Below the pieces are notes generated by a model. The model saw only the letters and a list, made by a program, of their open reading frames with translations. It was not told where the DNA came from and ran no database searches. Positions 7,240 through 53,755 of a DNA stretch of 64,000 bases are shown piece after piece. The DNA comes from Dictyostelium discoideum (lineage: Eukaryota), in contig CM000152.2 in assembly GCA_000004695.1 (NCBI GenBank), forward strand, positions 4,544,001-4,608,000, in the 5' to 3' direction. Numbering within the stretch: position 1 is the first letter of the stretch; each line of letters begins with the position of its first letter. A program made the translations under genes and the position numbers.

Positions 7240-7289
<50 letters not shown>

Positions 7290-9202: not shown

Positions 9203-11374
9203 ATGACAATTCCATATAAAATTTCATATTTTTTAATATTTTTTACGATACCACTTATGGGATCATTCCTATTATTATTTATAAGATTTCTATTCCTAGA
9301 AAATAAACATCATATAAGGAATTTTAATTATAATGGTGATAATAATAATAACAATCGAAATAAGAAATTAAAAAAGTATTTCATATTATCATTATTTTTA
9401 TATACATCAGCTATAATTGGATTCATTTTCACTTTATCATCATTTTCAAGTTGGAATTATTTACCTATAGAATTAACAACTATTACTTCAATAATAATAT
9501 TATTATTTTTTACATTTTATCAATTAATAATTCAATTTGAAGTTGAAAGAAAGAAACGAATTTTTAAAGTTAGAAAAAATAAAAATAAAAAATATTTCAT
9601 TCAAAGCCCACCAAATTTTAATAATGGTATAATTTTAAATAATAATAATAATAATAATTATGAAGATGATAAATCAAATATTAAAGAAAATATATTATTA
9701 GAATCATTAAATAGTAAACAAGATGGAGTAGTAATAGCAGCAGCAGAAGAAGAATATTATGAACAAGAGGAAGAAGAAGAAGAAGAATATAATGAAAATA
9801 AATCATTTTATAATTATAGTAATCAAATTGATACAAAATTAGGAATTTTAGATAGATTTAAAAAGAAGATAATTTATTTTATAAAGGATATTATAGAGAC
9901 TATTAAATTTAAACCAAAATTATCAATAACTTTAATATTGATATCACTTTTAATTTCAATAATGATACCAGTACTTTTGAATGATGTTTGTATTTGTTCA
10001 CATCCAATGAATGTTTCAACATCATTCACTAGAAAACTATTTCAAGAATCTTATTGTAAAAATGGTGAAATCTGTTTCCTTTATTTAACATTACCCAAAG
10101 ATGCATCAACATCAATGGTTTTACAAATTCATACATTTAATAAACCATCAAATATTATAATTACAATAACAAAGAATACTAATACTACTGGTGGTGGTGG
10201 TGGTGGTGGTGGTGGTAGTGGTGAAGATATTATATCAATTTCAAAATTTAATTTCATATCAATGTCAAAAATAATTAATGATTATCCAAGATATATAAGT
10301 TATATTGATTTAATTGGATTAAAAGAGAATACAAATTATAGTTTTAAAGTTAATTTCACAAGTAAAGAAATTCAAAAAACTTTAAATACTTATGATGGTG
10401 TAAATCTATTTCAATTTAAAACATTTTCAAATCAATCAGATTCAATCATTAAATTTGTATCTGGTGGTGATATAGTAATAAATAAAGATTCAAAAGATTT
10501 AGCAAAACATGCATCAATTAATTTTAATCCTGATTTCATTGTTGTTGGTGGTGATGTGGTTTATGAAGATGGTATAGGTTCATGTTATAAAAGATGGGAT
10601 GAAAAATTATCATTTTTCAATACTTATTTTAATTTAAAAATTAGTAATAATAATAGTAGTAGTAGTAGTAGTTTATTTTTAAAACCAATATTATTATCAA
10701 TTGGTAATCATGAGGCTGGTGCATTTTATCAAACTCATAAACAAGTACCATTTTATTTTAAATATTTCTTATTTGAATTGGATGGATTTAAAGATGGAAT
10801 TGATGAAAATAAAAACTCTTATCATATTCATAAAATTGCATCACATACATCAATAACTTCATTGGATAGTTGTGTAGTATCGACATGGGATCAACAAGCT
10901 CAATGGTTACATAATCAATGGAGTAATGAGGAATTCAATAATACAAATAAATTAGTAGTTTATCATCATCCAATTTATCCTGCTTGGAATTTGGATGGTT
11001 TAATACCAGAGTCTGGTAGAGATGTAATGATACCATTATTCGATAAATTTAAAGTACCTTTTGTTTTTGAAAATCATGAGCACCTTTTTAGACGTACAAA
11101 GAAATTAAAAGGAAATAAAATAATAGAGAATAATTCTACAACAACAACGACAACATTATCTCAAGGTACTTATTATGCTGGTTCAGGAAGTTTTGGTATT
11201 TCAAATACAAATATAATTCCATCCAATAATGATGAGTCATTACCTTGGTATTTAGCTAAAAGATCTTATTGTAATCATCTTTGGTATATAACTGCAACTC
11301 AAAAAGAAATTCTCGTTGAGGCATTTGCACCAAATGGTGATAAAATTGATAAAATTAATTATATTCAAAATTAA
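9203..11374 (+). CDS. Membrane-anchored calcineurin-like metallophosphoesterase (purple acid phosphatase-like), 723 aa
   Basis: N-terminal transmembrane helices. C-terminal metallophosphatase motifs are present: GGDIV...VVGGDVVYEDG (GDxxY), GNHEAG (GNHE), VVYHHPIYP, and ENHEHLFRR (GHxH-like). Confidence 0.7.
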   Translation: MTIPYKISYFLIFFTIPLMGSFLLLFIRFLFLENKHHIRNFNYNGDNNNNNRNKKLKKYFILSLFLYTSAIIGFIFTLSSFSSWNYLPIELTTITSIIILLFFTFYQLIIQFEVERKKRIFKVRKNKNKKYFIQSPPNFNNGIILNNNNNNNYEDDKSNIKENILLESLNSKQDGVVIAAAEEEYYEQEEEEEEEYNENKSFYNYSNQIDTKLGILDRFKKKIIYFIKDIIETIKFKPKLSITLILISLLISIMIPVLLNDVCICSHPMNVSTSFTRKLFQESYCKNGEICFLYLTLPKDASTSMVLQIHTFNKPSNIIITITKNTNTTGGGGGGGGGSGEDIISISKFNFISMSKIINDYPRYISYIDLIGLKENTNYSFKVNFTSKEIQKTLNTYDGVNLFQFKTFSNQSDSIIKFVSGGDIVINKDSKDLAKHASINFNPDFIVVGGDVVYEDGIGSCYKRWDEKLSFFNTYFNLKISNNNSSSSSSLFLKPILLSIGNHEAGAFYQTHKQVPFYFKYFLFELDGFKDGIDENKNSYHIHKIASHTSITSLDSCVVSTWDQQAQWLHNQWSNEEFNNTNKLVVYHHPIYPAWNLDGLIPESGRDVMIPLFDKFKVPFVFENHEHLFRRTKKLKGNKIIENNSTTTTTTLSQGTYYAGSGSFGISNTNIIPSNNDESLPWYLAKRSYCNHLWYITATQKEILVEAFAPNGDKIDKINYIQN

Positions 11375-11468
11375 TTATAATAAATTCCAATTTTTAATAA
11401 AAATTAATTTTTTTCAATCAACTATAAAACATTTTATTTTAAAAGATATTTTTAATTCATAATATTTT

Positions 11469-11501
<33 letters not shown>

Positions 11502-12004
11502 ATAAACAAATAATAAAAATAATATTTCAGATTTTTTTTTTTATTATTTTATTTTTTTTTTTCTTGGGTTCGGGATTATTTTTTTTTTTTTGGGTTTTGG
11601 CCTAGGAATACAAAAAAAAAAAAAAAAAAAAAAGAGATAAAAAAAGAGGAAAAAAAAGAGATAAAAAAAAAGAGATAAAAATTAAAATGTAAATTAAATT
11701 TTTATATTTTTTTTATTAAAAATAAAACTCCAAGTTTAATTAATTGCCACCTTTTTTTTTAATTTTATCTTTTCTTTTCAATTTTTTTTTTTTTTTTTTT
11801 TAGGGTAAAATTTCTTTGTTTTTAAAATTAAATTATTTTTAAATTTAATAAAAAAAAAAAAAAAAATTATGGATGTTTGGAATTATCTTGAGCTTATTAA
11901 ATTTATTTTTTATGTTTTAATGACTATATAAATGACATTCACCACTTTTTTATTTATTTTTAACAAAATTTAATTTTTTGTGTTTTTTGGTTTTTGTGCG
12001 CCCC

Positions 12005-12047
<43 letters not shown>

Positions 12048-12536
12048 CGAACAAAAAATAAGGAAAAATTTTCACATCTTAATTTTCTCTGCCTTATGAA
12101 ATCTTCACAATAAAAAACTCCATCCTAAAATGTTTCTAAATAAATAAACCTATTTTTTTTTTTATTTATTTTTTTATTTTTATTTTGTTACGTAATGATT
12201 ATTGGCAATGTTGTTACAAGGATGGGATCTTAAGAATGAATAGCTATTGGAACAGCGGCAGACGACCATTTGCCCGCAGTAGGTTTTTTATTTTTTACAC
12301 TTTCTATATTCTAACTTCGAATAATATATAATTTAATTATAGCTATCAACCACAAAATTTTTAAAAATAATAAAAAATTATAAATAATGTTTTTTTATTT
12401 TTTATTTTTTTTTTTTTTATTAAATAAGTTACTTTATTTTAAAATAAATTATAATAATAATAATAATAATAAAAATAATAATAATAATAATAAAAAAAAT
12501 AATAATAATTTTTTAAAAAATTTCATTCAACATCAA

Positions 12537-15500
12537 ATGGGTTTTAAAGTAAATAAAAATTTAAATGAAACAAATGACAATAGTGATAATGATGTTGCAA
12601 TTATTGGTATTGGATTTAGATTACCATCAGGTAATTTAAATAAATCAAATGATTCTCCAATTATTTTATGGGATAATTTAATGAAAGGATTTGATGGTAT
12701 GGTTGAAACATCAGAAAGATGGAGTGATAATTTCAATCAACTTGGTGAAATTTCAAATAAAAGTGGTGGATTATTACCATTAGATGAATGGAAATCATTT
12801 GATCCATTATTTTTCGGTATTAACCCATCAGAAGCTCAAACAATTGATCCTCAACAAAGAATACTATTAAAATGTACATGGGAGGCAATAGAGGATTCAA
12901 ATATTGATCCAATTAAAATTCGTGGTTCAAAAACATCAGTTTACATGGGTGGTACTTCTGTTGAATATAAAGAATTAAATAAGAATTCAAATGAAATTAA
13001 TCCAAATATTTTTGGTTCAACATTTAATACAATTGCGAATCGTATTTCATATTGTTTTGATCTTAGTGGTGAGTCTATGACATTAGATACTGCTTGTTCA
13101 TCATCTTTAAATGCAATTATCTTAGGTTATCAATCAATTAAAAGTGGTACTTCCAATTTATCAATTGTTGGTGGTGTTAATTTAATATTAGGTATGTAGT
13201 TTTATTAAATTATATAATACATATGTATATATTCATTTTTAATTACTAATAATTTTAAATTTAAAAAATAGATTCAAATTTATCAAAATCTTATTCTTAT
13301 TTAAATATGTTAAGTAAGAAAGAAGGTAAATGTATGTCATTTGATTCACGTGCAGATGGATTCGTTAGAAGTGAGGGTGCTGGTGTATTTATATTAAAAA
13401 GTTTAAAACAATCAATAATTGATGGTAATAATATTTATTGCGTTATTAAAGGAGCAAGTTCAAATATTGATGGTAATGGTTTAAATGATAAACAAAACTT
13501 TTATTCACCATCATCATCTTCACAAGCTGAAAATATTAATAGAGCACTATCATCAACTAAAGGATCTGTAAAAATTGATGATATTGTTTATGTAGAAGCA
13601 CATGGTACTGGTACACCAACTGGTGATCCAATTGAGTTAGAAGCAATTTCAAGAGTTTTCAAAACCAATAATAATGATAATAATAATCAACAACACCAAA
13701 ATCCAATATTAATTGGATCATTTAAAAGTTCCGTTGGTCATTTAGAATCAGCCTCAGGTTCAGCATCATTAGTAAAATGTTGTTTAATGTTTAAAAATCA
13801 ATATTTAACACCCAATGTTAATTTCAAAACACCAAATCCATCAATTAAATTTGATGAATGGAATTTAAAAGTTGTTACAGAACCAATACAATTTAAAGAT
13901 GTAAAGAAATCAAACAACTTTTCAATGATTTTAAATAATTTTGGTATCACTGGTTCAAATTGTTGTTTAATTTTATCACAATACAATGGAAACCATAATG
14001 ATGAACAGGAAAATCAACAACAACAACAACAACAAGGAAAACAATATTTAATTCCATTTTCAGCAAATTCAATACAATCATTAAAACAATATGAATCATT
14101 AATTAATGAAAATCAATTTAAAGAATCAAATGATTTTAAAGAATTTGTTAAACATCAAATATATAGTAAATCAATATCACTTTATCAACGTTCGGTTTCA
14201 ATAGCATCAAATTGGAATGATTTTAATGAAGGCATGAAATCAACAAATAACAACAATAATAAAACACAAACATCAAATTCAAAATCATCAAATATTTCAA
14301 TAATTCCAAAGAATCCAATCACTGTAATGGTATTTGCAGGACAAGGTTCACAATATAGTACAATGGCAATGGAATTATATAATAATGAACCAATATTTAA
14401 AGAATCAATGGATAGATTAGATAATAGATTATTAAGATATTATGGATACTCTGTATTGGAGAAATTTAGATCAAGCTGTGATAGTGATAGTATTCATTAT
14501 CCAACAATTGCTCAACCATCAATGTGTATGCTAACCATATCATTATTCGAATTATATAAACATTGGGGTATTGAAACATCATTTATTATTGGTCATAGTT
14601 TAGGTGAAATTCCAGCTGCTTATTGCTCAGGTATGATTTCATTAGATACTTTATGTTTTTTGATTTATCATAGATCAGTTGCACAAACTCATACACATCG
14701 TAATGGTAGAATGTTATCAATTAATATTAGTCCTGAAGAATATAATTCAAATTATTCATTAAAATACCCAAAAGTTGAAATTGCATGTTATAATTCACCA
14801 ACTTCGATTGTACTTGGTGGTGAAGAAACAATATTAAATCAAATATCAAATGATTTAAAAGAAAAAGGAATATTCTCAGCGATGTTAGGTTCACTATCAT
14901 CATTCCATACATCAAGCCAAAGAATTATTAAAGACCAAGTCATTGATTTAAATATTGAATGTAAATTAGCAAAAATTCCATCATTTTCAACAGTTACAAC
15001 CAATTTATTCAATGAAACGACATTATTCAATTCAGAATATATTTTTAATAATATGGCTCTACCAGTTAAATTTTCACAATCAATTTCAAATCTATTTAAA
15101 CATATTGAAATAAATAATTTAGGAAGTGATATTGTTTTCATTGAATTAGCACCACATCCAACATTACAATTTTATTTAAAACAAATGGCATCATCATATG
15201 AAAAAGTCAATTCAAATTTAAAAATATCAACATATTCACCACTTCACAAGAAAAAGAATGATATCGAAGAGATTCAAAAAACAATTTCACAACTTTATTG
15301 TAATAATGGGTACAGTATTAATTTTAAATCACAATTTAATAATGATTTTAAAATTAATAAAATCAATTCAATATTACCAAATTATCAATGGGAAGATGTA
15401 ATTCACTGGAGAGAAGATTTAATTCATCAAAAACATAATACTCAAGGACCACCAATTGATCAACTTGGTTTATCATTAATTGAAAGTTCACCAAATTTAA

Positions 15501-21970: not shown

Positions 21971-22041
21971 TGCGTATGCTGGGAATCGAACCCAGTTCGC
22001 ATCCGTGGCAGGGATGCATCATACCACTAGACCACATACGC
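21971..22041 (-). tRNA. tRNA-Gly (anticodon GCC), 71 nt
   Basis: The reverse complement folds as a cloverleaf: acceptor GCGTATG/CATACGC, anticodon arm CATCC-CTGCCAC-GGATG, T arm CTGGG-TTCGATT-CCCAG, discriminator A. A B-box-like GTTCGGAATTC about 30-40 bp downstream (plus coordinates about 21931..21942) is consistent with a Dictyostelium ex-B box. Confidence 0.85.
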
Positions 22042-22088
22042 TTTTTTGATATTTTGAAAAAAGATAACGTAATTGTATTTTTAAAAAT

Positions 22089-22149
22089 AGAAGATCGAAA
22101 AAAACAAACAATCTCTTTTTTTGATTATTTCATTTTTCATATAAAAAGC

Positions 22150-22184
<35 letters not shown>

Positions 22185-22190
22185 GGAACC
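22089..22190 (+). repeat. Short poly(A)-terminated retroelement-like fragment about 48 bp upstream of tRNA-Gly (candidate solo 3' module of a TRE5-type element)
   Basis: The sequence ...ctctttttttgattatttcatttttcatataaaaagcc is followed by A36. The same about 30-bp motif recurs in every unit of the 24053..25380 satellite. The position roughly 48 bp 5' of a tRNA gene is the known TRE5 target distance. This is an inference only. Confidence 0.35.
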
Positions 22191-22381
22191 CAAGTTAATC
22201 AGAAAATTTCCAGATTTTTTAACTTATTTAAGTAAAATAAAAAAAATAGAAAGAAAATAAGATGAAAATCACAAATATGTCATCAACATCAATCACGAAG
22301 CCGACGATAAAATAAAAAAGATTAAGAAAAAAGTGTGGACGAAAAAGATGTTATAATCAAAAGTAATAATACAATAGAAAG

Positions 22382-22430
<49 letters not shown>

Positions 22431-23820
22431 CTAACCCCTCTTTTAGAGACCGTGTAAAAAACTACAAATAAAATGAGATCTTGCATCTCAAGGAGAAGCA
22501 ACTAATAATTGCGTTATCCAATTCAAAAAAAAAAAGTATTTTCAAAAATAGCTTTGAATTAAAACCTTCACAGTTAATCCATTAAAGGAAATAAACAACA
22601 ATTATTAGTTTTACTTAATAATTATTTTAAAATATTGGTTGTAATTTCATTCTTCTAACATAAAATAGACTTTTTTTTATTTGAATCGGAATATAATATA
22701 TTTTTTTAAATAACATCATCACAATTTAAATTTAGTGTGATTAAAAATAAATTTGAGAGTCACTTTATTTTTTTTTTGGAAAATATCAAAATGCGAATTT
22801 AAATTTTAAAATGTAAAGTAGTAATTCTTTTTTTATTTATTTTGAATTACTTAAATAAAGAATTTTAATTTTAAAATATAGTGTATTATTATTATAATTA
22901 TTATTTTTTTTTAAAATATATTCAGTTTTAAATATGTTGGTATTTAAAATTAAATGAATTAAATATTGAAATTGTTGTTAATTATAAGAATTGGTCAAGG
23001 GTACTATATTCAGAAGATACAATAAGCTTGTCATGTTAATTCAAATTAATAATAAAGTATGTGTAAAATAAATATATGTAGTAATATTATCAGATATTTA
23101 AAATTAATGTTTTATTTGTTTTTATTTTTTAAGAATAAACACGATGACGCTATGAAATCAACAAAAAACAAATCGCATAAGTCGACTTCACCTTTAGAAA
23201 AGCGATGTGACAAAAATTCTAACAAAAGTTAAAACGAAACCTCAAATAACAAAACCATCACAATTATTTTTTTTTTTTTTTATTTTATTATAATATAATT
23301 AATCAGATTTTTTTTTTTTTTTTGATATAAATAAACTATTGTAGTATACAATTAGTATGTAATTTTTATTTATTTATTTTAGGTTTTTTAGTTTTTGTGA
23401 ATTTAAAATAGTATGTTATTTTAGATTAGGTAATTAATAATTAATTGGTGGTGTAATTGTTGGAATTGGTTCATTAGTGTTTATGCTCCATTCTTTTTTA
23501 AATTTTTTGATGGTTTCGGACCATTGGGTTTCTTTTTGAGTTTTTGTGAGGTTGTTTTTAATTGAGTATTGGTTAAAGTTTGTTTTTTTTTTTTTTTTTT
23601 TAATATTGGATTAACAAGATTGATATATGTCCATCTGTGTTAATACGAGTTTTATTTAATATTTATTTATAGGCTTATCATTTAAGCTGAAGGGTTATTT
23701 TAATCATATGAATTGATCAAAAGATATAATATTTGGGAGAGATGATTCTGGAATACAATAGTAATTAGCTGTTGTTTTTCTTAGCTTGATCGTTGAGGTG
23801 ATTAAAGTTTGATAAAGTAT

Positions 23821-23933: not shown

Positions 23934-24006
23934 CACCCATTGTGGGTCTCGATCCCACGACCTGCAGCTTAGAAGGCTGCCGCAATTCCAACTTTGCTAA
24001 ACGGGC
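23934..24006 (-). tRNA. tRNA-Arg (anticodon UCU), 73 nt
   Basis: The reverse complement is GCCCGTT-TA-GCAA-AGTTGGAA-TTGC-G-GCAGC-CTTCTAA-GCTGC-AGGTC-GTGGG-ATCGAGA-CCCAC-AATGGGT-G. All four stems pair, with two G-U wobble pairs in the acceptor stem. The anticodon loop is CTTCTAA. Confidence 0.8.
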
Positions 24007-24052: not shown

Positions 24053-25316
24053 GAGTAAGAGAAAAAACATCAACAACAACACTTTTTTTATTTGATTATT
24101 TCATTTTTCATATAAAAAAAAGACTTAAAAAAAATAAAATAAAATACACTTAGAGTAAACTACTTTATTTCTTTATTTTATTGTAATTTATTTTTTTCTT
24201 TTTTTTGAAAATTTTGCGAAGCAAAATTGAAAAAAAAAAGGAAAAAATAATCAGTAAGAGAAAAAACATCAACAACAACACTTTTTTTATTTGATTATTT
24301 CATTTTTCATATAAAAAAAAGACTTAAAAAAAATAAAATAAAATACACTTAGAGTAAACTACTTTATTTCTTTATTTTATTGTAATTTATTTTTTTCTTT
24401 TTTTTGAAAATTTTGCGAAGCAAAATTGAAAAAAAAAAGGAAAAAATAATCAGTAAGAGAAAAATCATCAACAACAACACTTTTTTTATTTGATTATTTC
24501 ATTTTTCAGATAAAAAAAAGACTTAAAAAAAATAAAATAAAATACACTTAGAGTAAACTACTTTATTTCTTTATTTTAGTGTAATTTATTTTTTTCTTTT
24601 TTTTGAAAATTTTGCGAAGCAAAATTGAAAAAAAAAAGGAAAAAATAATCAGTAAGAGAAAAAACATCAACAACAACACTTTTTTTATTTGATTATTTCA
24701 TTTTTCATATAAAAAAAAGACTTAAAAAAAATAAAATAAAATACACTTAGAGTAAACTACTTTATTTCTTTATTTTATTGTAATTTATTTTTTTCTTTTT
24801 TTTGAAAATTTTGCGAAGCAAAATTGAAAAAAAAAAGGAAAAAATAATCAGTAAGAGAAAAAACATCAACAACAACACTTTTTTTATTTGATTATTTCAT
24901 TTTTCATATAAAAAAAAGACTTAAAAAAAATAAAATAAAATACACTTAGAGTAAACTACTTTATTTCTTTATTTTATTGTAATTTATTTTTTTCTTTTTT
25001 TTGAAAATTTTGCGAAGCAAAATTGAAAAAAAAAAGGAAAAAATAATCAGTAAGAGAAAAAACATCAACAACAACACTTTTTTTATTTGATTATTTCATT
25101 TTTCATATAAAAAAAAGACTTAAAAAAAATAAAATAAAATACACTTAGAGTAAACTACTTTATTTCTTTATTTTATTGTAATTTATTTTTTTCTTTTTTT
25201 TGAAAATTTTGCGAAGCAAAATTGAAAAAAAAAGGAAAAAATAATCAGTAAGAGAAAAAACATCAACAACAACACTTTTTTTATTTGATTATTTCATTTT
25301 TCATATAAAAAAAAGA

Positions 25317-25380
<64 letters not shown>
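24053..25380. repeat. Tandem satellite: 7 copies of a roughly 195-201 bp unit (last copy truncated), terminating in an A60 tract
   Basis: The unit core (agtaagagaaaaaacatcaacaacaac...ttgattatttcatttttcatataaaaaaaagac...gaaaattttgcgaagcaaaattgaaaaaaaaaaggaaaaaataatc) recurs with starts near 24053, 24253, 24454, 24650, 24849, 25047 and 25243. Copies differ by a few substitutions. Confidence 0.9.
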
Positions 25381-25383
<3 letters not shown>

Positions 25384-25659
25384 CCGAAAACATTCTTTCA
25401 GGGAATTTCCAGAATTTTAAATTTTTAAAGCCGAATAAAGATTTTAAAGAAAAAAAAAAGAAATGAATAAATTGGCAAATACAATAATGACAGTGTTAGA
25501 GACTCAAAACTAAATTAATTTAAAGTTAGTATGAGCTCAACAACGTAACAAATTCGCGCATCTCCATGTAAAAATATTTCATTTAATTTTTATTTTTATT
25601 TTTTAATTTTTTAATTTTTTATTTTTTCAGTCAAAAAATAAAAAATTAAATTAAAAAAA

Positions 25660-26418
25660 CACAGCAAAGAAAAATGCACCTTTAAAGCAAATTTAAAGAA
25701 AAGTTGATTTAAATTGGATTTAAATTGAATTTAAAGCCGCGTTTAAAAAATTCATTTTTAAGGTAATTTTTAAGGTAATTTTTAAGATATTTAAAAATGC
25801 CTTTAAAATTTGCTTTAAAATAAATTTTTAAGCAATTTTAAAGGTGATTTTAAAGGTGATTTTAAAGGTGATTTTTAAGGTAATTTTTAAGATAATTTTT
25901 AAGATATTTAAAAATACCTTTAAAATTTATTTTAAATTAATTTTAAATAGGATTTAAAGTAGATTAAAAGTAGATTTAAAGTGAATTTAAATTTCCTTTA
26001 AACATAAATTTAAGGTTTTTAATAAAAAAGATCTAATTTTAGCACAAAAAAATGGGGATAAAATATTCTATCATTTTTAAATTTTTCATCAAAGCAATCA
26101 AATGGTGTAATGGTTGTTGAGACTCCCCTTTGATAGAGGGTCGGCGGATCGAATCCCTTTTGGGTAATTTTTGAAAAATTAAAAAAAAATTTTAAAAAAT
26201 TTATCCGTTAAATAACGGATTCGAACTCAGGACCTCGCTTTTAAAGCCATTAAAAAGGTAATTTTAAAGGTAATTTTAAAGGTAATTTTTAAGGTGATTT
26301 TAAAGTAACCTTAAAAATTACCTTTAAAATTACCTTTAAAATTGCTTTAATTCAGGACTTTAAAGCAAATTTAAATTTAATTTAAAGCGAATTTAAAGGT
26401 GGTTTTTTCTTTGCTGTG
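25660..26418. mobile_element. 759-bp terminal-inverted-repeat element (non-autonomous DNA transposon-like), copy 1, nested inside the Skipper 5' LTR
   Basis: - Perfect 15-bp terminal inverted repeats: CACAGCAAAGAAAAA ... TTTTTCTTTGCTGTG.
- No ORF.
- Interior is built from short direct repeats (GGTAATTTTTAAG / GGTGATTTTAAAG / TTTAAAG).
- Central A-box-like (TGGTGTAATGG) and B-box-like (GGATCGAATCC; GAGTTCGAATCCG) tRNA-derived motifs.
- The LTR sequence resumes exactly after the insertion, by comparison with the intact 3' LTR. Confidence 0.75.
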
Positions 26419-26954
26419 AAATTAAATTAAATTAAAATTTAAAAAAATAATAAAAATTCTGATTTTTCGGTTTAGTTGGAATAACGCCCTTACTTTTAAT
26501 TATCTCTTTTATGTATGTTTACTTTTATGATATTAGTCTTTCACTCTTTCTATCCTTCATATTAAAAAACATTACTTTAAAGATTGGACTGTTTGATAAA
26601 AGATTGAACAAATGTGACAATGGATTGAAGATTAGTGTGAGTGACTTTTACACTTTTTTTTTTCTAATTTTAACATAAAACAAATACATTAAAACAAATA
26701 ATTAGATACAATCCTTATATTTCGTATACAATGACACCTCATGATGAAGAAGTCGACTCTTCAGATTAGAGGAATAACAGTAGTATTTAAAACAAAATAA
26801 AAATGCATTACAATGGCCCTTCTGTTTGCAAGATTAACGCTGTACTGCTTAGGCGGTACAACGACACTTCCTACTCACATTGTAAACATGCATCTTTTAT
26901 AAAGTAATATAAAACAAGATTGTATCAATTAATTTAATAATAATGCTCAAATAC

Positions 26955-27230
26955 AAAGACACCACAATATAAATTATTAGTGGAATAACAGTTAAACAAA
27001 GACACCACAATATAAATTATTAGTGGAATAACAGTTAAATAAAGACACCACAATATAAATTATTAGTGGAATAACAGTTAAATAAAGACACCACAATATA
27101 AATTATTAGTGGAATAACAGTTATATTGATGCATTGTTATAATTAAAATAATTTAAGATAATATTTATTATCAATTAAATAATATAAAGACACCACAATA
27201 AAAATATATTAGTGGAATAACAGTTAACAT
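26955..27230 (+). repeat. Tandem 41-bp repeats (5 adjacent copies plus one diverged copy) in the 5' untranslated leader of the Skipper-like element
   Basis: The unit aaagacaccacaatataaattattagtggaataacagttaa recurs head-to-tail from about 26955 to 27165. A further copy lies at 27187..27230. Confidence 0.85.
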
Positions 27231-27378
27231 ATATTAATACTTATATTTAATTATTTAATTAAAAATTAAATTAAATTAAATTAAATAAATTAAATTAAAT
27301 TATATAATTAAATTATGTAAATTAAATTAAAAAATTAAATTATAAAATTAAATTATATTTAATAAATTTTATATATAA

Positions 27379-28542
27379 TTGTTGGTGAAAGTCATGTCAT
27401 CAACTACTACTCCTTCAAAGAAAGCCATCCGTAAAGCCAAAGTGTCTTCCACCGCCAAACGTGCCGCTGAAGTGACAACCGCCTCCGATGATGCTATTAC
27501 TGTTCAAGTAAAATCAAAAAAGACTCTTCGTCCCACTGAAGTTGATGATGAAATTTATTCAACTGAAAGCACTGATGTATCCGACGTCGAAGTCAGAGAG
27601 AAAGTGCCAAAGAAATCAAAGACCAATTCCATTGAAGCTAAAACCATTGACGCTTTAAAAAATGCTGCCACTGCTGTCATCTTCATGAATCTCTTTACCA
27701 TCCACTGCTCCCAGAATGGTGTTGAACCAACCTTGAAGACCATTATGGACAATGGTGCTGCATCAAATGAATTATTTCAATTGCTTCAACCTACCCACAA
27801 TGAATCAGTTAAGAACAACGATAAAATTGAAGGTGAAACATTGAAGAAGCTAATCCACCGTAACTTTAGATCCAAGACTTTGGTTCCATTCAAAACTGAC
27901 TACGAAGCTGCCAACACTAAAGTAGTCGAAGCTATTAACCATCGTAACTGCTACTCAGCCCAAGATGTTATAAAAAACATCGAAGCCATTATGAGTTACC
28001 ACAATGTAATTAATCCGGTGTATCTCATCCATGGTACTGCTGAAGTTCAATTAGAGTATCTAAGATCAATTTTAGATAATAATATCCTTGCTTTGTTAAA
28101 GATGGTCGTACCAGACTGGTTACAAACTGATGTTGCAATCAAACTCAACACTCAAACCGATATCACCGAGTGTCGTGAAGCCATCACCGAGTTGGTTCTT
28201 AACAATGCTGATAAGTTCTCGAGAAGAAGACCTTCCGATTCCGCATCGAATACTGATGAGAAGTTTCCATTAAAAAAGAATCATGCTACTCCAAATCATA
28301 ACTCTCATAACAGGAATTCCTTTGATGCTCAAGCTGATAAGATTAGAGCTGCAATATTACCCGAAATAAGAAAAGACTCTAAGGTAGACCTCAAAAAGAT
28401 AAGAAGCAGTTTCATCGTTTACCGTCAAAGCAAAGGCTACTGTCTCAATTGTGGTAAATCAAATCACTCCACATCTACATGTAGAATTGATCCGGTCGAT
28501 GCCAAAGCCAATCCAGGTCCATCAGCCAAAAAGCAACAATGA
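27379..28542 (+). CDS. Skipper-like Gag (387 aa) with a C-terminal CCHC zinc knuckle
   Basis: The motif CLNCGKSNHSTSTC (CX2CX4HX4C) lies near the C-terminus. The ORF ends in TGA at 28540..28542. Codon usage is less AT-biased than host genes. Confidence 0.85.
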   Translation: MLVKVMSSTTTPSKKAIRKAKVSSTAKRAAEVTTASDDAITVQVKSKKTLRPTEVDDEIYSTESTDVSDVEVREKVPKKSKTNSIEAKTIDALKNAATAVIFMNLFTIHCSQNGVEPTLKTIMDNGAASNELFQLLQPTHNESVKNNDKIEGETLKKLIHRNFRSKTLVPFKTDYEAANTKVVEAINHRNCYSAQDVIKNIEAIMSYHNVINPVYLIHGTAEVQLEYLRSILDNNILALLKMVVPDWLQTDVAIKLNTQTDITECREAITELVLNNADKFSRRRPSDSASNTDEKFPLKKNHATPNHNSHNRNSFDAQADKIRAAILPEIRKDSKVDLKKIRSSFIVYRQSKGYCLNCGKSNHSTSTCRIDPVDAKANPGPSAKKQQ

Positions 28543-31500
28543 CTCGATGAAGGTGATGAGTCCAAGTCAAAGATTTTAAATAAAAATTATAAAATTTCTC
28601 AATATCATCACCTTGAGGATAATGATTACCCAGTGAACAAAGATTCACTTTATACTCTTAACTCTTTTTATAATCAAAACATTGTTAAACAGTTACATCA
28701 ACAAAGCCAGCAACATGATGTTCATAAAAACATCAACAAACTTAAAGAATACGTCAAAGACTCATATGGTATAAAACTAGTTCCTGATACAACCGTTCCA
28801 ATTCCAAAAGCTGTTGAATCAGAGATGAAGTATAAACCACAGAAGATTGAATTTAATACTCCAACAGAGTTAACAAATGTTCAAGATAAAAACTATACTG
28901 TAAACATATTCAATCGTCCAAAGATATTAAATTCTAGTAAAGAATTAATTAACGATGAAGAAGATGAATTGCTTTACACAATTAAATTCGATAAAGAAAC
29001 AAACAAACCAATCATCTCATTATTACATAGTACTGGTACAAGTGATACTGCTCTCATTCCGACTCTCAAATGTTTAATCGTTCCAAACAGAGAAAACATG
29101 GATAAACCCAAGATTATAATTAACTCTCATTCCAAAGAAAAACAATTCAAATTAATTCTCGATACTGGAAGTAATGTTAGTTTAATCAATAAGAGGTTGA
29201 TTTCAAAAGATATGAAGAACCACGTTCACAAAACGAAAGCCAAGATTAACTTCCCGCTACTAGACGTCAAAGAAGAGTTTGTTGAACAAATCAATATACA
29301 AGTTAACAATGAAATTCATAACTTCTTTATTATAGAATTGGATATCATTGATGTACTTTTCGGTAATGATATCCTTAAGGACTCTATCATTAACCAAAAA
29401 GATAAAATAATCAAGTTGAATAATAGTACATACAAAATTAATTATCAACAGTCGAATCAATTACATTGTAATGTAAAAGCTCCAAGAAAACATGTTACCG
29501 TATCCAATGATAATCAGTCACAGTCACATAATCTACTAGATGATGATGAAGATATCAAAGAACAAGTTACAAAGTTTGTTGAAAGCATCCCATCACAACT
29601 TTGTGATATACTGGTTAAAACTAATCCAGAAGAAGAAGAGATACAAGCAGTACGTGATTTCATTAATGATTCATTCGAAGATGTTATAGTAGATAAACTT
29701 CCTGATATTCCAGATCAGATTAACAATTCCAGAAGAGGTAATATCATACATAATATCATAATAAAGAAAGATCAAGATGTTGAACCAACAAAGAAACAAA
29801 TCTATTATTCAACAGATGATCATAAGAGACATGTCGAAGAAATGGTTCTCAAATTTATAGATTTAGGTATTATCAAAAGATCAGAATCAAATTACTCATC
29901 TCCAATCATGTTATTAAAGAAGAGAGATTCATGGCGTGTAGTCCACGACTATCGTCAACTAAATAAAGTCACTGTTAGAGACGATCATCCATTCACTCCG
30001 GTTGATAGTCTTTTAAATCAATGTAAAGATTCAAAGCTTTTCTCAAAGTTTGACATGATTATGGGTTATTTCCAAGTGTTAATTAATCCAGAACACGCAA
30101 AGTACACCGCTTTCATTACACATATTGGTAAATTTGAATATACTAGAATGCCACAAGGTTTAGTCAACTCTCCATCCACATTCGCCAGATTGATGGTCGA
30201 AATATTTGGAAAAATCAAAAGTTTATTACAATACTTTGATGATCTTTTGGTTCATTCAAAACTCGACTACATGGTACATTTCATTGAAATCATTAGAATG
30301 CTTCTATATTGTAGAAAGTACCTATTATTCATTTCAAGAGAAAAGAGTGAAATGTTAAAGACTGAAGTTGATTTCCTTGGTTTTCACATTCATAAAGATG
30401 GTATATCTCCAAGAGCTGCAAAGGTTAGAGCTATCTCTGAGTTACCTGAACCAAGAAACGCCAAAGAAGCTGAAGCTGCATTAGGTCTTTTTGGATTCTT
30501 CAGGAGACACATTGAAAATTACGCTGAAAAAACCTATCACCTTTCCAAAGAATCAAAAGGAAAAAACAAGAAAACACTTTCTGATGAATCACTCAAAGAA
30601 TTCAATAATCTAAAGAAAGAGTTTGAAGGTGAAAATATTGTCGCTATTCCAATTGAACAAGATAACTCCATACCAATAGATATCGAAAAGGTTAAAGCAT
30701 CAACAGACATGCCAATCCATTCAGATAATAATAATCTAAACAATGGTAGTTTTCACTTGTATTGTGATGTTAGTGATAAAGCATTATCAGGTGTATTATA
30801 TCAAATTCAAGGTAATAAATTCAAAGTCATTTGGTTTCACAGTAGAAAACTTACTGATACTCAAAAGAGGTACAGCATAGGTGATAGAGAGTTCCTTTCA
30901 ATCATTGATTCTCTAAAGAAGTTTCAACATTTATTAATTGGTAAAAAGGTTTCAATCTACACTGATCACCAAAATCTTACATATATTATCAATAAGTCAA
31001 ACGATAAACCGTTCACAAAGAGACAAGATAATTATATGAAATATATTAAAGAATTTGATTATGAATTAAGACATATAAGTGGTAAAAAGAATGGTATAGC
31101 TGATTTTTTATCTCGTAAATATGATAATTTCCAATGGGATGAATCGTTTTTAAATAAAATTAAGGAAGAACAAATCAATTCTCAATGGCTATTAGAGATG
31201 AAAAAGAATCCAAATTTATGCATTGAAGAAATTAATGATATCTGTTACCTTAGTGAAGATGGGTTCAAGAAATTAATCATCATAGATAAAGAAACTATTC
31301 ATACCGTCATTAGAGAATATCACGATACCAAATATAGTGGTCATCACGCTTTAGATATCACATACAATAATATAAGACAAGATTACTATTTCAAAGAAAT
31401 GTTTTCTATTATCAAGAGGTACATAAAGTCTTGTGCAACATGTCAATTGAACATTAACCGTAAAGATAATGGTATACTCCAAAGTTTAGAAATTCCCTTT

Positions 31501-32826
31501 GAAGTTTGGAGAGATATATCAATCGATTTCTTATCGCTACCAAAAACAATGTATGCAATAAACGGATTTACAGTTGAAGTCGATCAAGTTTGTGTCATTG
31601 TTTGTAGATTATCTAAAATGGTTCATATAGTTCCATGTCATAAGACAATAGATGCCCAACATACCGTTCAATTATTGTTGAATCATGTGTTCAGACTCCA
31701 TGGTTATCCAAGAACAATCGTCTCCGATAGAGATCCAAGATTCCTTTCAGAAATATGGGAGAGATGGGCAAAGACGATGGATTCTAAACTCAAGATGACT
31801 GTGGCACACAGAGCACAAGCTGATGGTCAAACTGAAAGAATGAATAGAGAAATTATTAGAATATTAACTAAAGCCTCAACAGAGTATGGGGAGAATTGGT
31901 CAGATATCATTCCACTTATTGAATTTGCAATGAACTCATCAATGAGCAAGTCTACAAAGATGTCACCATTCCAAATCGTTTATGGATTCAATCCACCAAC
32001 TCCCGTTAATCATTTCAATTCATTAACAAAGACTCGTATACCAATGAGCAACATCAAAAAGATTGTCCGTGATAATATACTAGATGCTCAAATCAATGCT
32101 CAAAAGTATTACAACCGAGGTCGTGGTGATGTTATCTTCGTAGTCGGAGAAAAGGTGATGGTTAAAAGAAAATTCTTCCAAACTAATCTTTCAAAAGATC
32201 TAATCTCTCACAAACTTGAATCCAAGAATTGTGGACCATTCATAATCACTGCCGTTCATGGTAATAATGTAACACTCGATTTAGTAGGTTATCCAAAGAA
32301 ACACAATGTGTTCAACAAAGATCAAATCGTAAAACTATACGAGGACAGTGAGTGGTTAAGAGAAGAGATATCGATGCCGGAACCTGAGGAGATGGACGAA
32401 GCAAGTTACGAAGTTGAAAGTATTCTCAATCACGATAAAGTCAAAAAGATGTACCTAGTGAAGTTCAAAGGTTACCCAGAACCTGAATGGATCAAAGAAG
32501 TCGATACAGACTGTGAAGAGTTAGTCAGAGAGTATTGGAATAACGTGCAGAAGAAACAATTGAACTCAAGAAGAGAAAGAGAGAATGTAACTACAGAAGC
32601 CGTTGAGCCAATTGTGTCACCTCCACTCTCCCAAGAAGTTCAAAGTTCTCAAACATTGCAACCAATTACTCCAAGACAACAAAACTCCATCTCAAATCAA
32701 AGAAACCAATCAAAGAAAAGAAAATCAAGAAATCAAAATACTTCAAGTGATGATGATGAACTTGATCTTAGTTTACAAATTAAAACAACTAGATCAGGAA
32801 GAAAAGTTACACCCAAGAGTTTATAG
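28543..32826 (+). CDS. Skipper-like Pol polyprotein (PR-RT-RNaseH-IN-chromodomain), in the same frame as gag directly after its UGA. Has no ATG of its own (the ORF track start at 28633 is GTG)
   Basis: - Protease LILDTGSNVSL.
- RT motif LQYFDDLLVHS.
- Integrase zinc finger HHALD...CATCQ.
- DDE core (DFLSLP...VDQVCVIVCRLSKMVHIVPCHK...).
- Chromodomain YEVESILNHDKVKKMYLVKFKGYPEPEWIKEVD.
- The frame is open from 28543 onward. Confidence 0.85.
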   Translation, partial: LDEGDESKSKILNKNYKISQYHHLEDNDYPVNKDSLYTLNSFYNQNIVKQLHQQSQQHDVHKNINKLKEYVKDSYGIKLVPDTTVPIPKAVESEMKYKPQKIEFNTPTELTNVQDKNYTVNIFNRPKILNSSKELINDEEDELLYTIKFDKETNKPIISLLHSTGTSDTALIPTLKCLIVPNRENMDKPKIIINSHSKEKQFKLILDTGSNVSLINKRLISKDMKNHVHKTKAKINFPLLDVKEEFVEQINIQVNNEIHNFFIIELDIIDVLFGNDILKDSIINQKDKIIKLNNSTYKINYQQSNQLHCNVKAPRKHVTVSNDNQSQSHNLLDDDEDIKEQVTKFVESIPSQLCDILVKTNPEEEEIQAVRDFINDSFEDVIVDKLPDIPDQINNSRRGNIIHNIIIKKDQDVEPTKKQIYYSTDDHKRHVEEMVLKFIDLGIIKRSESNYSSPIMLLKKRDSWRVVHDYRQLNKVTVRDDHPFTPVDSLLNQCKDSKLFSKFDMIMGYFQVLINPEHAKYTAFITHIGKFEYTRMPQGLVNSPSTFARLMVEIFGKIKSLLQYFDDLLVHSKLDYMVHFIEIIRMLLYCRKYLLFISREKSEMLKTEVDFLGFHIHKDGISPRAAKVRAISELPEPRNAKEAEAALGLFGFFRRHIENYAEKTYHLSKESKGKNKKTLSDESLKEFNNLKKEFEGENIVAIPIEQDNSIPIDIEKVKASTDMPIHSDNNNLNNGSFHLYCDVSDKALSGVLYQIQGNKFKVIWFHSRKLTDTQKRYSIGDREFLSIIDSLKKFQHLLIGKKVSIYTDHQNLTYIINKSNDKPFTKRQDNYMKYIKEFDYELRHISGKKNGIADFLSRKYDNFQWDESFLNKIKEEQINSQWLLEMKKNPNLCIEEINDICYLSEDGFKKLIIIDKETIHTVIREYHDTKYSGHHALDITYNNIRQDYYFKEMFSIIKRYIKSCATCQLNINRKDNGILQSLEIPFEVWRDISIDFLSLPKTMYAINGFTVEVDQVCVIVCRLSKMVHIVPCHKTIDAQHTVQLLLNHVFRLHGYPRTIVSDRDPRFLSEIWERWAKTMDSKLKMTVAHRAQADGQTERMNREIIRILTKASTEYGENWSDIIPLIEFAMNSSMSKSTKMSPFQIVYGFNPPTPVNHFNSLTKTRIPMSNIKKIVRDNILDAQINAQKYYNRGRGDVIFVVGEKVMVKRKFFQTNLSKDLISHKLESKNCGPFIITAVHGNNVTLDLVGYPKKHNVFNKDQIVKLYEDSEWLREEISMPEPEEMDEASYEVESILNHDKVKKMYLVKFKGYPEPEWIKEVDTDCEELVREYWNNVQKKQLNSRRERENVTTEAVEPIVSPPLSQEVQSSQTLQPITPRQQNSISNQRNQSKKRKSRNQNTSSDDDELDLSLQIKTTRSGRKVTPKSL

Positions 32827-33302
32827 TCCACCTCTGAGCCATAGCTAGCCTAAAGAAGGAAGGGGAAGGTGTTAGAGACTCAAAACTAAATTAATTTAAA
32901 GTTAGTATGAGCTCAACAACGTAACAAATTCGCGCATCTCCATGTAAAAATATTTCATTTAATTTTTATTTTTATTTTTTAATTTTTTAATTTTTTATTT
33001 TTTCAGTCAAAAAATAAAAAATTAAATTAAAAAAAATTAAATTAAATTAAAATTTAAAAAAATAATAAAAATTCTGATTTTTCGGTTTAGTTGGAATAAC
33101 GCCCTTACTTTTAATTATCTCTTTTATGTATGTTTACTTTTATGATATTAGTCTTTCACTCTTTCTATCCTTCATATTAAAAAACATTACTTTAAAGATT
33201 GGACTGTTTGATAAAAGATTGAACAAATGTGACAATGGATTGAAGATTAGTGTGAGTGACTTTTACAGACAGAATCAACAGAAACATTGGCAGATAAAAT
33301 CA

Positions 33303-34060
33303 CACAGCAAAGAAAAATGCACCTTTAAAGCAAATTTAAAGAAAAGTTGATTTAAATTGGATTTAAATTGAATTTAAAGCCGCGTTTAAAAAATTCATTT
33401 TTAAGGTAATTTTTAAGGTAATTTTTAAGATATTTAAAAATGCCTTTAAAATTTGCTTTAAAATAATTTTTTAAGCAATTTTAAAGGTGATTTTAAAGGT
33501 GATTTTAAAGGTGATTTTTAAGGTAATTTTTAAGATAATTTTTAAGATATTTAAAAATACCTTTAAAATTTATTTTAAATTAATTTTAAATAGGATTTAA
33601 AGTAGATTTAAAGTAGATTTAAAGTGAATTTAAATTTCCTTTAAACATAAATTTAAGGTTTTTAATAAAAAAGATCTAATTTTAGAACAAAAAAATGGGG
33701 ATAAAATATTCTATCATTTTTAAATTTTCATCAAAGCAATCAAATGGTGTAATGGTTGATGAGACTACCCTTTAATAGAGGGTCGGGGGATCGAATCCCT
33801 TTTGGTAATTTTTGAAAAATTAAAAAAAAAAATTTTAAAAAATTTATCCGTTAAATAACGGCTTCGAACTCAGGACCTCGCTTTTAAAGCGATTAAAAAG
33901 GTAATTTTAAAGGTAATTTTAAAGGTAATTTTTAAGGTGATTTTAAAGTAACCTTAAAAATTACCTTTAAAATTACCTTTAAAATTGCTTTAATTCAGGA
34001 CTTTAAAGCAAATTTAAATTTAATTTAAAGCGAATTTAAAGGTGGTTTTTTCTTCGCTGT
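33303..34060. mobile_element. 759-bp terminal-inverted-repeat element, copy 2 (about 97% identical to copy 1). Lies 35 bp downstream of the Skipper 3' LTR and abuts a non-LTR retroelement fragment
   Basis: Same termini (CACAGCAAAGAAAAATGCACCTTTAAAG ... AAAGGTGGTTTTTTCTTCGCTGTG) and same internal organisation as copy 1. It differs by scattered substitutions and indels. Confidence 0.75.
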
Positions 34061-34730
34061 GATGACATAAAGAAACTGGAGAACGTTAATGCCAACATGT
34101 TATTCAAAGGGGACAGGTGGGCTATCTCAAAAGAAAGGAGCAGAAGAGACTATGAAATTGGAGGCCTGGAACTCTGGAATAGGGACTTAGCATGGAGATA
34201 TCTACTCAAGGCACTTCCAAAACACCATGGGGAGAATTGCCACTCATGTAAAGAAGAAGAATCGTCTATGCACATCTTCTTCGAATGCAAATCAATAAAA
34301 CAGAATATCGACTCAATCTATCAAAAGGTCTGTAAAGACTCCAACAACACTTACCACGGTCCATGGAGCGAAAAAGTTCTCGGAAAACTACTCACACCAT
34401 TCTCATCAAATCTGATAGGAGCCATTATGGAATCGATATGGTACAGAAGAAATCAAATAAAATTCAACGATAACACTACAATAATAACAGAGAACCAAAT
34501 AATTCATAAAATCAAAAAAGCGAGAGATGCCGAATGGGATAGAACAAGAAAGATAGTAGAAAAACAACTACGTCAAGAACTAAGATGCACTGATAACCGA
34601 GAGTCAATCAATCGGACCGCATCAATAAAAAGAAGACTCGAAAAATTCAGCCACAACTGGAACTCGAAACTCATGACCATAAACATCCCGGAACACTTCA
34701 TACCATACTGCTCATATAACACCAACTACT

Positions 34731-34764
<34 letters not shown>

Positions 34765-34856
34765 ATAACAATAATAATAATAATAATAATAATATAATAA
34801 TATAATAATAATAATATAATAATAATAATAATAATAATAAAAATAAGAATAACAAG

Positions 34857-34904
<48 letters not shown>

Positions 34905-42991: not shown

Positions 42992-45900
42992 TTAACGATT
43001 GAGCCATCTAACTTTTTTGAAACCCCAGAAACTTAAACCAACAAAAATGAAAATGTAACCAAAGATAGCAGCAATATCGATATATCTCATGAATTTATGG
43101 AAACCATAAGTTAACATGAAATCATCACCATTTGTAATTGGACAATAATATTTAATCGCTATTTGAACACCATTTTCAATGATTGGAATTGGTACAGCAC
43201 CTTTATTATTTGTACAAACAAATGTTAAACCTGTGAATTCATTGGTACAAGATGCTTCCAAAGGATACCTGAGCCAGTCTAAATAATGACACCAATAATA
43301 TGCAGATGGATAATTTGGTCTTGCAATGACGAAACCACCAAATAATGTTGCCAATGATAAACCAATACCACATATTGTTGATGCCATAACTTCATTTGGT
43401 AAGCAAACCGCCAGACATAATGCAAACGCATCATACATAATATAGGTGATAATGAAAATGAATAGACAATACCAAAATTTAGATGAATGTCGACCGGAAT
43501 CCAGACCAGCAATCCAAAATGTTGGAATAATATAAAGAATACCAGTTGATAGAATAAATGGATACGATGTTAATACATATGATATCATATATGCCGTTGA
43601 ATGATAGAAACCTGCGGTAACTTCACGATAGAATACACCTCTTTCTAATACTGTTGTTGGAATATTACCAATTGCGACCATACCGGCAAAAAGGAACGAA
43701 AAGAAGAGTAATGAAACACGAGATCTTGCATCCTTTTGTTCATAGTCCATACGAACAAATAGTGTACCTAATAGGACTGCCAACAATATTGAACGAAGAC
43801 AATTTGAAACGAATATTGCTGGACGCCTCAACCGAGATAACCAACTTCTCATACAAAGTGCGCGGAATTGTGTCATCCATGATGAAGCAAACCTTGAATC
43901 ATACGTTTTAACTACAAAGTCATCAGGTATTAATTGTCCTTCCATAATTTCATATTCTTTTTTACAAATATTAGATTCAAAATATGCCTTCTTTGCATCA
44001 AGATGTTCTTGTTCACCATTTGGACCTTCAACCATTTTACCTTCATCAGCTAATGTCATTACGAAATCAGCAGGATTAATATGTGGTTTAATATGCATAC
44101 CTAATTTATCACAATAATCTAAAATCACACTTGACTGATTACCCAATGGCCCAAAATAAATTGTTTCACCACCTTTTTTTAGTAATAATAATTGGTCAAA
44201 GAATTCGAAAATTGCAGCAGATGGTTGATGTACTGTACAAATTACAGTTCTATTCATTACTTTGGCAATTTTATTAACTACATCAATTACTTTAAATGCG
44301 TCACCAGAGTCTAAACCACTTGTTGGTTCATCAAGGAAAAGAATTTCTGGATTTGAAGCTAATTCAACACCAATATTTACTCTTTTTCTTTGCGATACTG
44401 ATAAACCATTTCCAAGTACACCAATCTTTAAATCTTTAATACTTGATAGACTTAAAACTTCAACGATCTTATCAACAAAGATCTCTCTTTCTTCTTTAGT
44501 AACTTCAGGTGGTAGTCTACATCTTGCACTGAATGCAATCGCTTCTCTAACTGTTTGTGTTGGTGGTAAAACATCCATTTGTTCAACATATGCTCTTATT
44601 CTATTTGTAAATTCAGAAGGTGGTTTACCATTAATTAAAATTTCACCAGTGATATGGCCACCAGTTTTTCTTTGAGCTAAAACATCTAATAATGTTGATT
44701 TACCTGCACCTGATGGTCCCATTAATGCTAACATCTATAATAAAAAAATAAAATTAATAATTAGTAATAAATAAATTAAACAAAAGAATATTTTTAAAAA
44801 ACATACTTGACCAGGTTTAACATAACCATCAATATCAGTTAATAGTTGTAATCTTTGACTTTTCTTTTTCTTTGGATTGTCTGGATCATCAGCTTTTACA
44901 TCAACAGCATAACAAAGTTTTTTAAATTGTAAATAACTACCAGTTTCTGAACTTATATCTTTTTGAGAGGTACTTATTGGTTTTTGTTTTGAATGATTAC
45001 CATTTTTTGAAGGAGTATTAACCATTGGTGATAAATTTGTTAATGGGGAATTAACCATTGGTGATAGAGTCGAAGGTGTTTTAACTTTTCTTCTTTTTAT
45101 ATTATTACCGGATCCTGATAAATTATTATTATTATTGTAATTGGGAGATGTTAATGGTGATTTCATATCAATTACAGTATCATCGTCATAGTTTGAAATA
45201 TCAGCATTATCATCATTATCATCACTAACTCTTTCTAATGCTTCAGTAGTAACTTTACAATTTGGCTCTTCATCTTCTTTACAAACAATAACTTTTTTCT
45301 TTTTCTTTAATTTCTTTACTGCTAATTTGGATTTTTTATCTTCAAAATTTAAATATTTCAAAGCAAAGAAACAAACTGAATAAAAGAATACAATATAAGC
45401 ACCTAAAATTGCATAAACAATCCATTTGAAATAATCTGGGTTATTAATACCAAATGCATCCATAATTTGTTCACCAGATGTATATTGACAAACTTGATTA
45501 CCACCGAAACCTTCTGGATATGGTAATAGATTTTGAGGAGTTCTTGGTGGTATTAATTCAGAATCTTTACAACCATACGCTTGATATGTAAATTCATTAA
45601 TTGATAAACCTTGGAAAATCCATGTATAGGGTGATATATAATATAACCAAATCCACCAACCTCCAATATCATTCTTTGGTGCCGTGAAACCTGAAAATAA
45701 TAACCAAATTGAAAGTATTACTGATGCTGTTACATTTGCAATTTCAATTGTTGGTGAAATTGCTGCACACATTTTAGCAAATGATAATGATAAATTATCA
45801 GTTCTAAAAAAAAAAAAAAAAAATTAGGATTTATAAAAATAAATACTTGAATAAATTAATTAAAATAAAAATACATACATAAATAATAAAATCATAAAAT

Positions 45901-46532: not shown

Positions 46533-46566
<34 letters not shown>

Positions 46567-47572: not shown

Positions 47573-47652
<80 letters not shown>

Positions 47653-47754
47653 GTTATTATTATTATTATTTAGGGTTGGTTCTTCTTGATTATTTATTGG
47701 TATTGATAGATTCGGAGAATATGAAGATTTATCTCTTGGATCTTGTTTTACCAT
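42992..47754 (-). CDS. Full-size ABCG (PDR/WBC-type) transporter, copy 1. Domain order NBD-TMD-NBD-TMD; 4 exons (about 46591..47754, 45860..46530, 44735..45786, 42992..44734)
   Basis: - NBD1: Walker A GTPGCGKST, signature ISGGQKKRVT, Walker B LLLMDEPTSGLDS.
- NBD2: GPSGAGKST, LSVSQRKRVN, ILFLDEPTSGLDS.
- Two six-helix TMD regions.
- Introns carry GTAAGT/GTTTGT donors.
- N-terminal poly-Asn. Confidence 0.85.

Positions 47755-50565: not shown

Positions 50566-50597
<32 letters not shown>

Positions 50598-53668: not shown

Positions 53669-53755
<87 letters not shown>

Follow-up and report, generated by a model that had tools for sequence, protein, structure and literature searches.

A non-coding 759-bp terminal-inverted-repeat element nested in the 5' LTR of a Skipper-type retrotransposon of Dictyostelium discoideum

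Retroelements and tRNA genes at the locus

The window (the whole 64,000-nucleotide stretch of D. discoideum DNA that was analysed) contains a TRE5-type element that starts ~48 bp upstream of a tRNA-Arg gene (23934-24006, minus strand). This is the position relative to tRNA genes that is reported for TRE5-A (PMC3159450). The TRE5-type element is split by a Skipper-type retrotransposon and by the second of two copies of a 759-bp unit, the first of which lies within the Skipper 5' LTR. The nested features, with window coordinates, are as follows.

24054-25493, plus strand: 5' part of the TRE5-type element, made up of 199-bp modules in tandem (6.5 of them), then an A-run, the 5' UTR and the first part of ORF1
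25494-33267, plus strand: Skipper-type Ty3/gypsy LTR retrotransposon, 7013 bp without the insert, recognised by its LTRs, domains and target-site duplication (TSD)
25494-26652: Skipper 5' LTR (interrupted), TG...CA
32869-33267: Skipper 3' LTR, TG...CA
25489-25493 and 33268-33272: 5-bp Skipper TSD, GACAG
25660-26418, plus strand: copy 1, a 759-bp non-autonomous terminal-inverted-repeat (TIR) element in the Skipper 5' LTR, with boundaries at the limits of homology
33303-34061, plus strand: copy 2, which has the orientation of copy 1 and 98% identity to it, at the internal deletion junction of the TRE5-type element
34062-34900, plus strand: 3' part of the TRE5-type element, with the ORF2 C-terminus and an A-rich tail

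The retrotransposon encodes gag and a pol in which RT, RNase H and integrase domains were found. The gag product matches the D. discoideum AX4 protein DDB_G0281533 'Gag' at 100% identity. The size (7.0 kb) and structure of this Ty3/gypsy element fit Skipper, which we take it to be. The Skipper leader, which separates the 5' LTR from gag, contains about five tandem 43-bp repeats (26912-27169).

The 199-bp modules of the TRE5-type element (24054-25380) are 99-100% identical and are followed by an A-run of ~60. The ORF2 C-terminal product encoded in the window is identical to AX4 DDB_G0281479. Compared to intact copies, the TRE5-type element is also without roughly 110 codons between ...ELWN and RDLAWRYLL. 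A TRE5-like 5' end, with similar sequence and A-runs, was also found shortly upstream of a tRNA-Gly(GCC) gene on the minus strand (region 21971-22440). Since TRE5-like ends lie near both the tRNA-Gly(GCC) and the tRNA-Arg gene, both tRNA genes are retroelement landing sites. Elsewhere in the window, a gene for an ABC-G (PDR-type) transporter is present twice in tandem, at 42992-47754 and 48822-53860. Each copy is visible as a parallel set of four exon-like ORFs (minus strand), and the first set was checked against Pfam.

The orthologous locus was looked up by exact protein. The only match was in GCA_054883475.1, an assembly made independently from Nanopore data for the same lineage, and the flanking 539-aa protein gave no entries in the protein collection. 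An empty-site allele of the LTR insertion was thus not seen in any other strain. GCA_054883475.1 was 99.5% identical to the window over 14 kb and contained both copies of the 759-bp element. Its gag differs, whereas that of the window is exactly the AX4 protein. We take this assembly to be AX2; an identity to AX4 of the same value has been reported for AX2-214, which was assembled from long reads. About two fewer of the 199-bp modules were apparent in it (offset ~416 bp). The agreement of two independent assemblies supports the reality of the nested structure; as the two have common ancestry, it is silent on polymorphism.

Structure of the 759-bp element and its insertion into the Skipper 5' LTR

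Copy 1 and the duplicated target bases that flank it comprise the following features.

25658-25659, unstranded: left copy of the target-site duplication AA, 2 bp (7+3 A compared to 8 A)
25660-25674, plus strand: left TIR, 15 bp and perfect, CACAGCAAAGAAAAA, from the sequence and an alignment of eight termini
25754-25992, plus strand: arrays of 11-12-bp units (ATTTTTAAGGTA / TTTAAAG-type) in the left subterminal region, from Tandem Repeats Finder and motif enrichment
26096-26166, plus strand: central 71-nt tRNA-like relic with A-box/B-box-like TGGTGTAATGG and GGATCGAATCC, then TTTT, from relaxed ARAGORN
26237-26366, unstranded: subterminal repeats of the right side, which make up a near-perfect palindrome of 2 x 65 nt whose arms are 82% complementary and directly adjoin (0 nt apart)
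26404-26418, minus strand: right TIR, the exact reverse complement of CACAGCAAAGAAAAA, ending TTTTTCTTTGCTGTG
26419-26420, unstranded: right copy of the target-site duplication AA, 2 bp (7+3 A compared to 8 A)

An earlier note on this DNA had described a discrete, non-coding 759-bp unit with perfect 15-bp TIRs, and this description proved exact. The TIRs extend imperfectly to 51 nt at 76%, and the 729 bp between the 15-bp repeats have a G+C content of 22%. Copy 1 has no ORF; its longest stop-free stretch is 62 codons, for which a search of 1.84 billion representative proteins returned no homologue. The similarity of copy 1 to copy 2, and to a homologue from a wild isolate (locus L009, below), is bounded exactly by CACAGC...GCTGTG, and the three full-length copies fix the element boundaries to the base. 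Allowing up to two mismatches, the TIR 15-mer occurs six times in the window compared to 0.70 expected, a count reached by 0 of 100 shuffles, and four of the six matches are the ends of the two element copies.

The interior of copy 1 consists of a less repetitive centre flanked on both sides by arrays of 11-12-bp TTTAAAG-type units, with dense short repeats in both orientations in the subterminal regions. The subterminal TTTAAAG motifs that had been pointed out before were recovered in quantity: copy 1 contains 15, or 19.8 per kb, compared to 0.37 per kb in the rest of the window. Folded as single-stranded DNA, the whole of copy 1 gave -143 kcal/mol compared to -79 for shuffles (z = -15.5). 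The 130-nt palindrome at 26237-26366 had sub-threshold matches in Rfam to palindromic models of MITE-derived miRNA families, such as mir-548 (42.6 bits, gathering score 90). It has predicted hairpin potential, and hairpin small RNAs might be produced from it, as has been reported for the D. discoideum repeat thug-S.

In the centre of copy 1, ARAGORN at 90% of its default thresholds called a 71-nt cloverleaf. At 80%, each of the three full-length copies gave a cloverleaf at this position, with differing anticodons (33738-33808 in copy 2 and 7387-7457 in L009). Default ARAGORN called no tRNA in the centre of copy 1, and Rfam gave no tRNA match at E<=10. A real tRNA gene was thus ruled out, the cloverleaf being found at relaxed thresholds only. 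Also ruled out was a tRNA-derived SINE, as there is no callable tRNA and the element has TIR ends instead of a tail. We suggest that 26096-26166 is best termed a tRNA-like relic, and any role in Pol III transcription is speculation.

To either side of copy 1 the LTR sequence continues exactly, as had been noted from the comparison with the 3' LTR: 25493-25659 matches 32869-33035 and 26419-26652 matches 33034-33267, both at 100%. Apart from the insert, the two Skipper LTRs show 0 differences in 399 positions. Three full Skipper LTRs in the AX2 loci L005 and L006 are uninterrupted and ~399 bp long, and a fourth ends at the edge of L005. The element therefore does not belong to the Skipper LTR as such, being absent from the 3' LTR of the same retrotransposon and from the LTRs of L005 and L006. 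Reverse transcription renders both LTRs of a retrotransposon identical at integration. Since the insert is present in one of two otherwise identical LTRs, it arrived after Skipper had integrated. This is the order that the earlier note had proposed, and it is upheld by the 100% identity of both 5' LTR halves to the 3' LTR and by the uninterrupted LTRs elsewhere.

At the insertion site, the A-run reads 7+3 in the interrupted LTR and 8 in five intact Skipper LTRs, these five being the 3' LTR of this very Skipper and all site-covering LTRs of L005 and L006. The earlier note had left it between a 2-bp target duplication and a polymorphism as the possible source of the extra AA. Because every intact LTR that covers the site has 8 A, the first of these stands and a length polymorphism does not.

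The two copies in the window lie 7.6 kb apart and bracket most of Skipper, with copy 2 sitting 35 bp past the 3' LTR. Such a near-identical neighbour in the same orientation is what would be expected if gene conversion or ectopic recombination had carried copy 2 sequence into the LTR; transposition would likewise not be needed if the structure were natural variation of the LTR or an artefact of assembly. We regard all of these as highly improbable. The junctions of copy 1 are exact to the base at the TIR ends and carry the 2-bp duplication, and the two copy sites have no flanking homology. Copy 2 differs from copy 1 by 11 substitutions and 3 indels in 759 bp (~1.8%), whereas the Skipper LTRs are identical. 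The same structure is present in GCA_054883475.1, and the five other LTRs are without the unit. The spacing of 7.6 kb could be a coincidence, this tRNA neighbourhood being rich in transposons, or a third copy may have transposed locally.

Relatives in a wild isolate, target sites and superfamily

Comparison loci were gathered via the TRE and Skipper proteins, giving a sample of ~256 kb of D. discoideum DNA. Two relatives of the element were found in the wild isolate GCA_054859355.1. The first, at 11104-13120 of locus L001, is a 2017-bp non-coding element with the same termini and a 26-bp perfect TIR, CACAGCAAAGAAAATCACACCTTAAA. Its interior is unrelated AT-rich sequence with internal direct repeats of 184-187 bp. 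A relative with the same termini and an unrelated interior indicates that the family has size variants. This element interrupts a TRE ORF2, where the sequence reads GCAC-TA[..]TA-CCAAAAC; uninterrupted TRE copies read GCACTTCCAAAAC and all have A-L-P in frame there. Comparison of the L001 flanks with the uninterrupted copies thus reveals a TA duplication.

The second relative, in locus L009, is a full-length homologue of 754 bp that is ~83% identical, its centre included. It is flanked by TA/TA in intron-like sequence, and an adjacent paralogous intron is without the insert. At 6860-7900, this copy appears to lie within an intron (GTAAGT...TTTTAG), the gene in question having short exons that are repeated. 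If the intron-like call holds, the family also lands in the introns of host genes.

Alignment of the eight ends of the four elements gave the terminal consensus CACAGCAAWGAAAA..CACCTTTAAA. Identical dinucleotides flank the element at all three informative sites, which would occur by chance with a probability of ~0.001. The 2-bp duplication is supported by empty-site comparison at two of these sites (L001 and copy 1) and by the paralogous intron at L009. The duplicated bases are TA at two of the three (L001 and L009; P by composition ~0.03) and AA at copy 1. Copy 2, with flanks CA/AT, has no duplication.

No further members were detected in seven other loci (L005-L008 and L010-L012, ~150 kb), and no further copies in 105 kb of additional AX2 DNA. 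The ~256 kb of sampled D. discoideum DNA contained no autonomous partner with matching TIRs and no transposase. A scan for the TIR pattern gave 0 matches in a metagenome collection and 0 in a prokaryote genome collection, and a search for the TIR string in papers returned unrelated primers only. The odd N-terminus of the protein P0003, in the sampled loci, does not derive from the element.

The D. discoideum transposons Tdd-4/Tdd-5 (Ginger2) generate 5-bp duplications, carry TIRs of 260-297 bp and are ~3.8 kb long (PMC2836005). The 759-bp element shares with them the host and the organisation of a TIR DNA transposon but has a 2-bp duplication, TIRs of 15-26 bp and CACAG termini, and the differences in duplication and TIR length rule it out as a Tdd-4/Tdd-5 element. 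It resembles the Tc1/mariner-type, Stowaway-like MITEs, for which a TA target duplication is characteristic: it is shorter than 1 kb, does not code and is AT-rich, its TIRs are short and exact, its self-complementarity is strong, and it duplicates 2 bp (TA at two of three sites) on insertion into other repeats and an intron. Unlike Stowaway-like MITEs, it has one AA duplication, and its termini are CACAG... rather than the usual CAGT/CTCC types.

Elements of the CACTA/Mirage/Chapaev (CMC, En/Spm-type) group are characterised by 5'-CAC termini, TSDs of 2-3 bp and dense subterminal repeats. The element shares with non-autonomous CACTA/Mirage elements the 5'-CAC termini, the 2-bp duplication, and direct and inverted subterminal repeats, and differs from them in the TA bias of its target sites. 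We infer that it is either Tc1/mariner-like, on the TA bias, or CACTA/Mirage-like, on its CAC termini, 2-bp TSD and subterminal repeats. A CMC origin to the exclusion of Tc1/mariner, with TA at two sites by chance in AT-rich DNA, seems unlikely to us. It would account for termini that start CACAG, for a 2-bp TSD that is AA rather than TA at one site, and for short subterminal repeats that are as dense, and in both orientations, as in En/Spm-type elements. However, composition alone would give the TA/TA flanks at two of three sites with P of only ~0.03, and no transposase of either the CMC or the Tc1/mariner type was seen in the sampled loci.

Order of events, identity of the family and implications

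Exact TIRs, a fixed 2-bp duplication, the lack of an ORF, subterminal arrays and dispersed copies together make up the anatomy of a non-autonomous cut-and-paste element. We consider the 759-bp unit very probably to be a MITE-like, non-autonomous TIR transposon of class II that was mobilised in trans, duplicated 2 bp of its target and inserted after Skipper. The mobilisation we infer would be carried out by a transposase recognising the termini CACAGCAAWGAAAA..CACCTTTAAA and probably also the dense 11-12-bp TTTAAAG-type subterminal repeats. Integration would duplicate 2 bp of the target, AA here and TA twice elsewhere.

The surroundings of copy 2 are more complex. When Skipper is removed, the left flank of copy 2 is the TRE 5' UTR and the first ~20 codons of ORF1; its alignment to L001:6721-6842 scores 110, compared to a shuffle maximum of 73. 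The TRE5-type remnant around the deletion therefore consists of 25381-25493 and 33273-33302, followed by 34062-34900. Copy 2 marks the exact site at which ~3.7 kb of the TRE5-type element is missing, between ORF1 codon ~20 and a point close to the ORF2 end. A simple insertion of copy 2 into the TRE ORF2 was ruled out, as the sequence to its left comes from the TRE 5' UTR and the first codons of ORF1 instead of from neighbouring ORF2. Deletions at a single element without a duplication usually result from recombination between two insertions or from an adjacent deletion in an aborted transposition.

We reconstruct the history of the locus, including the origin of the ~3.7-kb deletion and of copy 2, as follows. 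The TRE5-type element would have integrated first, ~48 bp upstream of tRNA-Arg. One copy of the 759-bp element would then have settled in the TRE, and ~3.7 kb of the TRE would have gone, either because two element insertions recombined or through an adjacent deletion when a transposition failed. Skipper would have integrated 30 bp upstream of copy 2 (TSD GACAG), and these last two steps may have occurred in either order. Finally, a further copy would have entered the Skipper 5' LTR from a source other than copy 2. The difference of ~1.8% between copies 1 and 2, set against 0/399 between the LTRs, argues that copy 1 was not copied from copy 2 after Skipper integration. The comparison of these sequences implies a third, source copy for copy 1, and hence that the family probably occurs at least three times in the strain.

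Glöckner et al. 2001 reportedly named the elements thug-T, thug-S and DDT-S in D. discoideum. The DNA-transposon groups of this organism make up 0.5% (Tdd), 0.9% (DDT) and 0.1% (thug) of the genome (PMC5633606). thug-S is described as repetitive and multicopy; its hairpins give rise to miRNAs, and its annotation includes an ORF interrupted by an intron (PMC4894637, PMC6161686). By description only, the 759-bp element is like thug and DDT-S in host, in being a putative DNA transposon and in its low abundance. Because the catalogue was built on the same strain, where the family probably occurs at least three times, we lean towards the view that the family is already named, as thug-T, thug-S or DDT-S, and that the earlier note's 'previously uncharacterised' is probably wrong. 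The mechanism would then be the same and the nested insertion routine, the comparison with these families being one of descriptions. The repeats of D. discoideum have been catalogued exhaustively on this strain lineage, the 130-nt near-perfect palindrome recalls the hairpin-derived miRNAs of thug-S, and the lack of copies in 105 kb of further AX2 DNA fits a rare family like thug. Against this, thug-S is described with an intron-bearing ORF, whereas the element has none. The published D. discoideum miRNAs that we found match neither the element nor any of the loci, a comparison of little weight because the sources do not say which one belongs to thug-S; thug-T may also differ from thug-S. We consider it improbable that the family is absent from the published D. 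discoideum catalogue and constitutes a MITE with a preference for TA that has moved recently in the NC4/AX lineage, with a conserved tRNA-like A-box/B-box module and a long hairpin.

If the family is already named, the locus is a well-resolved example of nested insertion near a tRNA gene and of little further import. The expression and control of DNA transposons in D. discoideum are said to be unstudied (PMC5633606). Insertion after a Skipper whose two LTRs are still identical argues for recent DNA-transposon activity in the lineage of the standard laboratory strains. The 2-bp, TA-biased duplication provides a first handle on the transposase superfamily to seek, and the position of copy 2 at a 3.7-kb deletion suggests that such elements reshape other repeats. 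If the family is uncatalogued, its copies could make hairpin small RNAs, and they could seed Pol III/TFIIIC sites that would serve as new landing pads for tRNA-targeted TREs.
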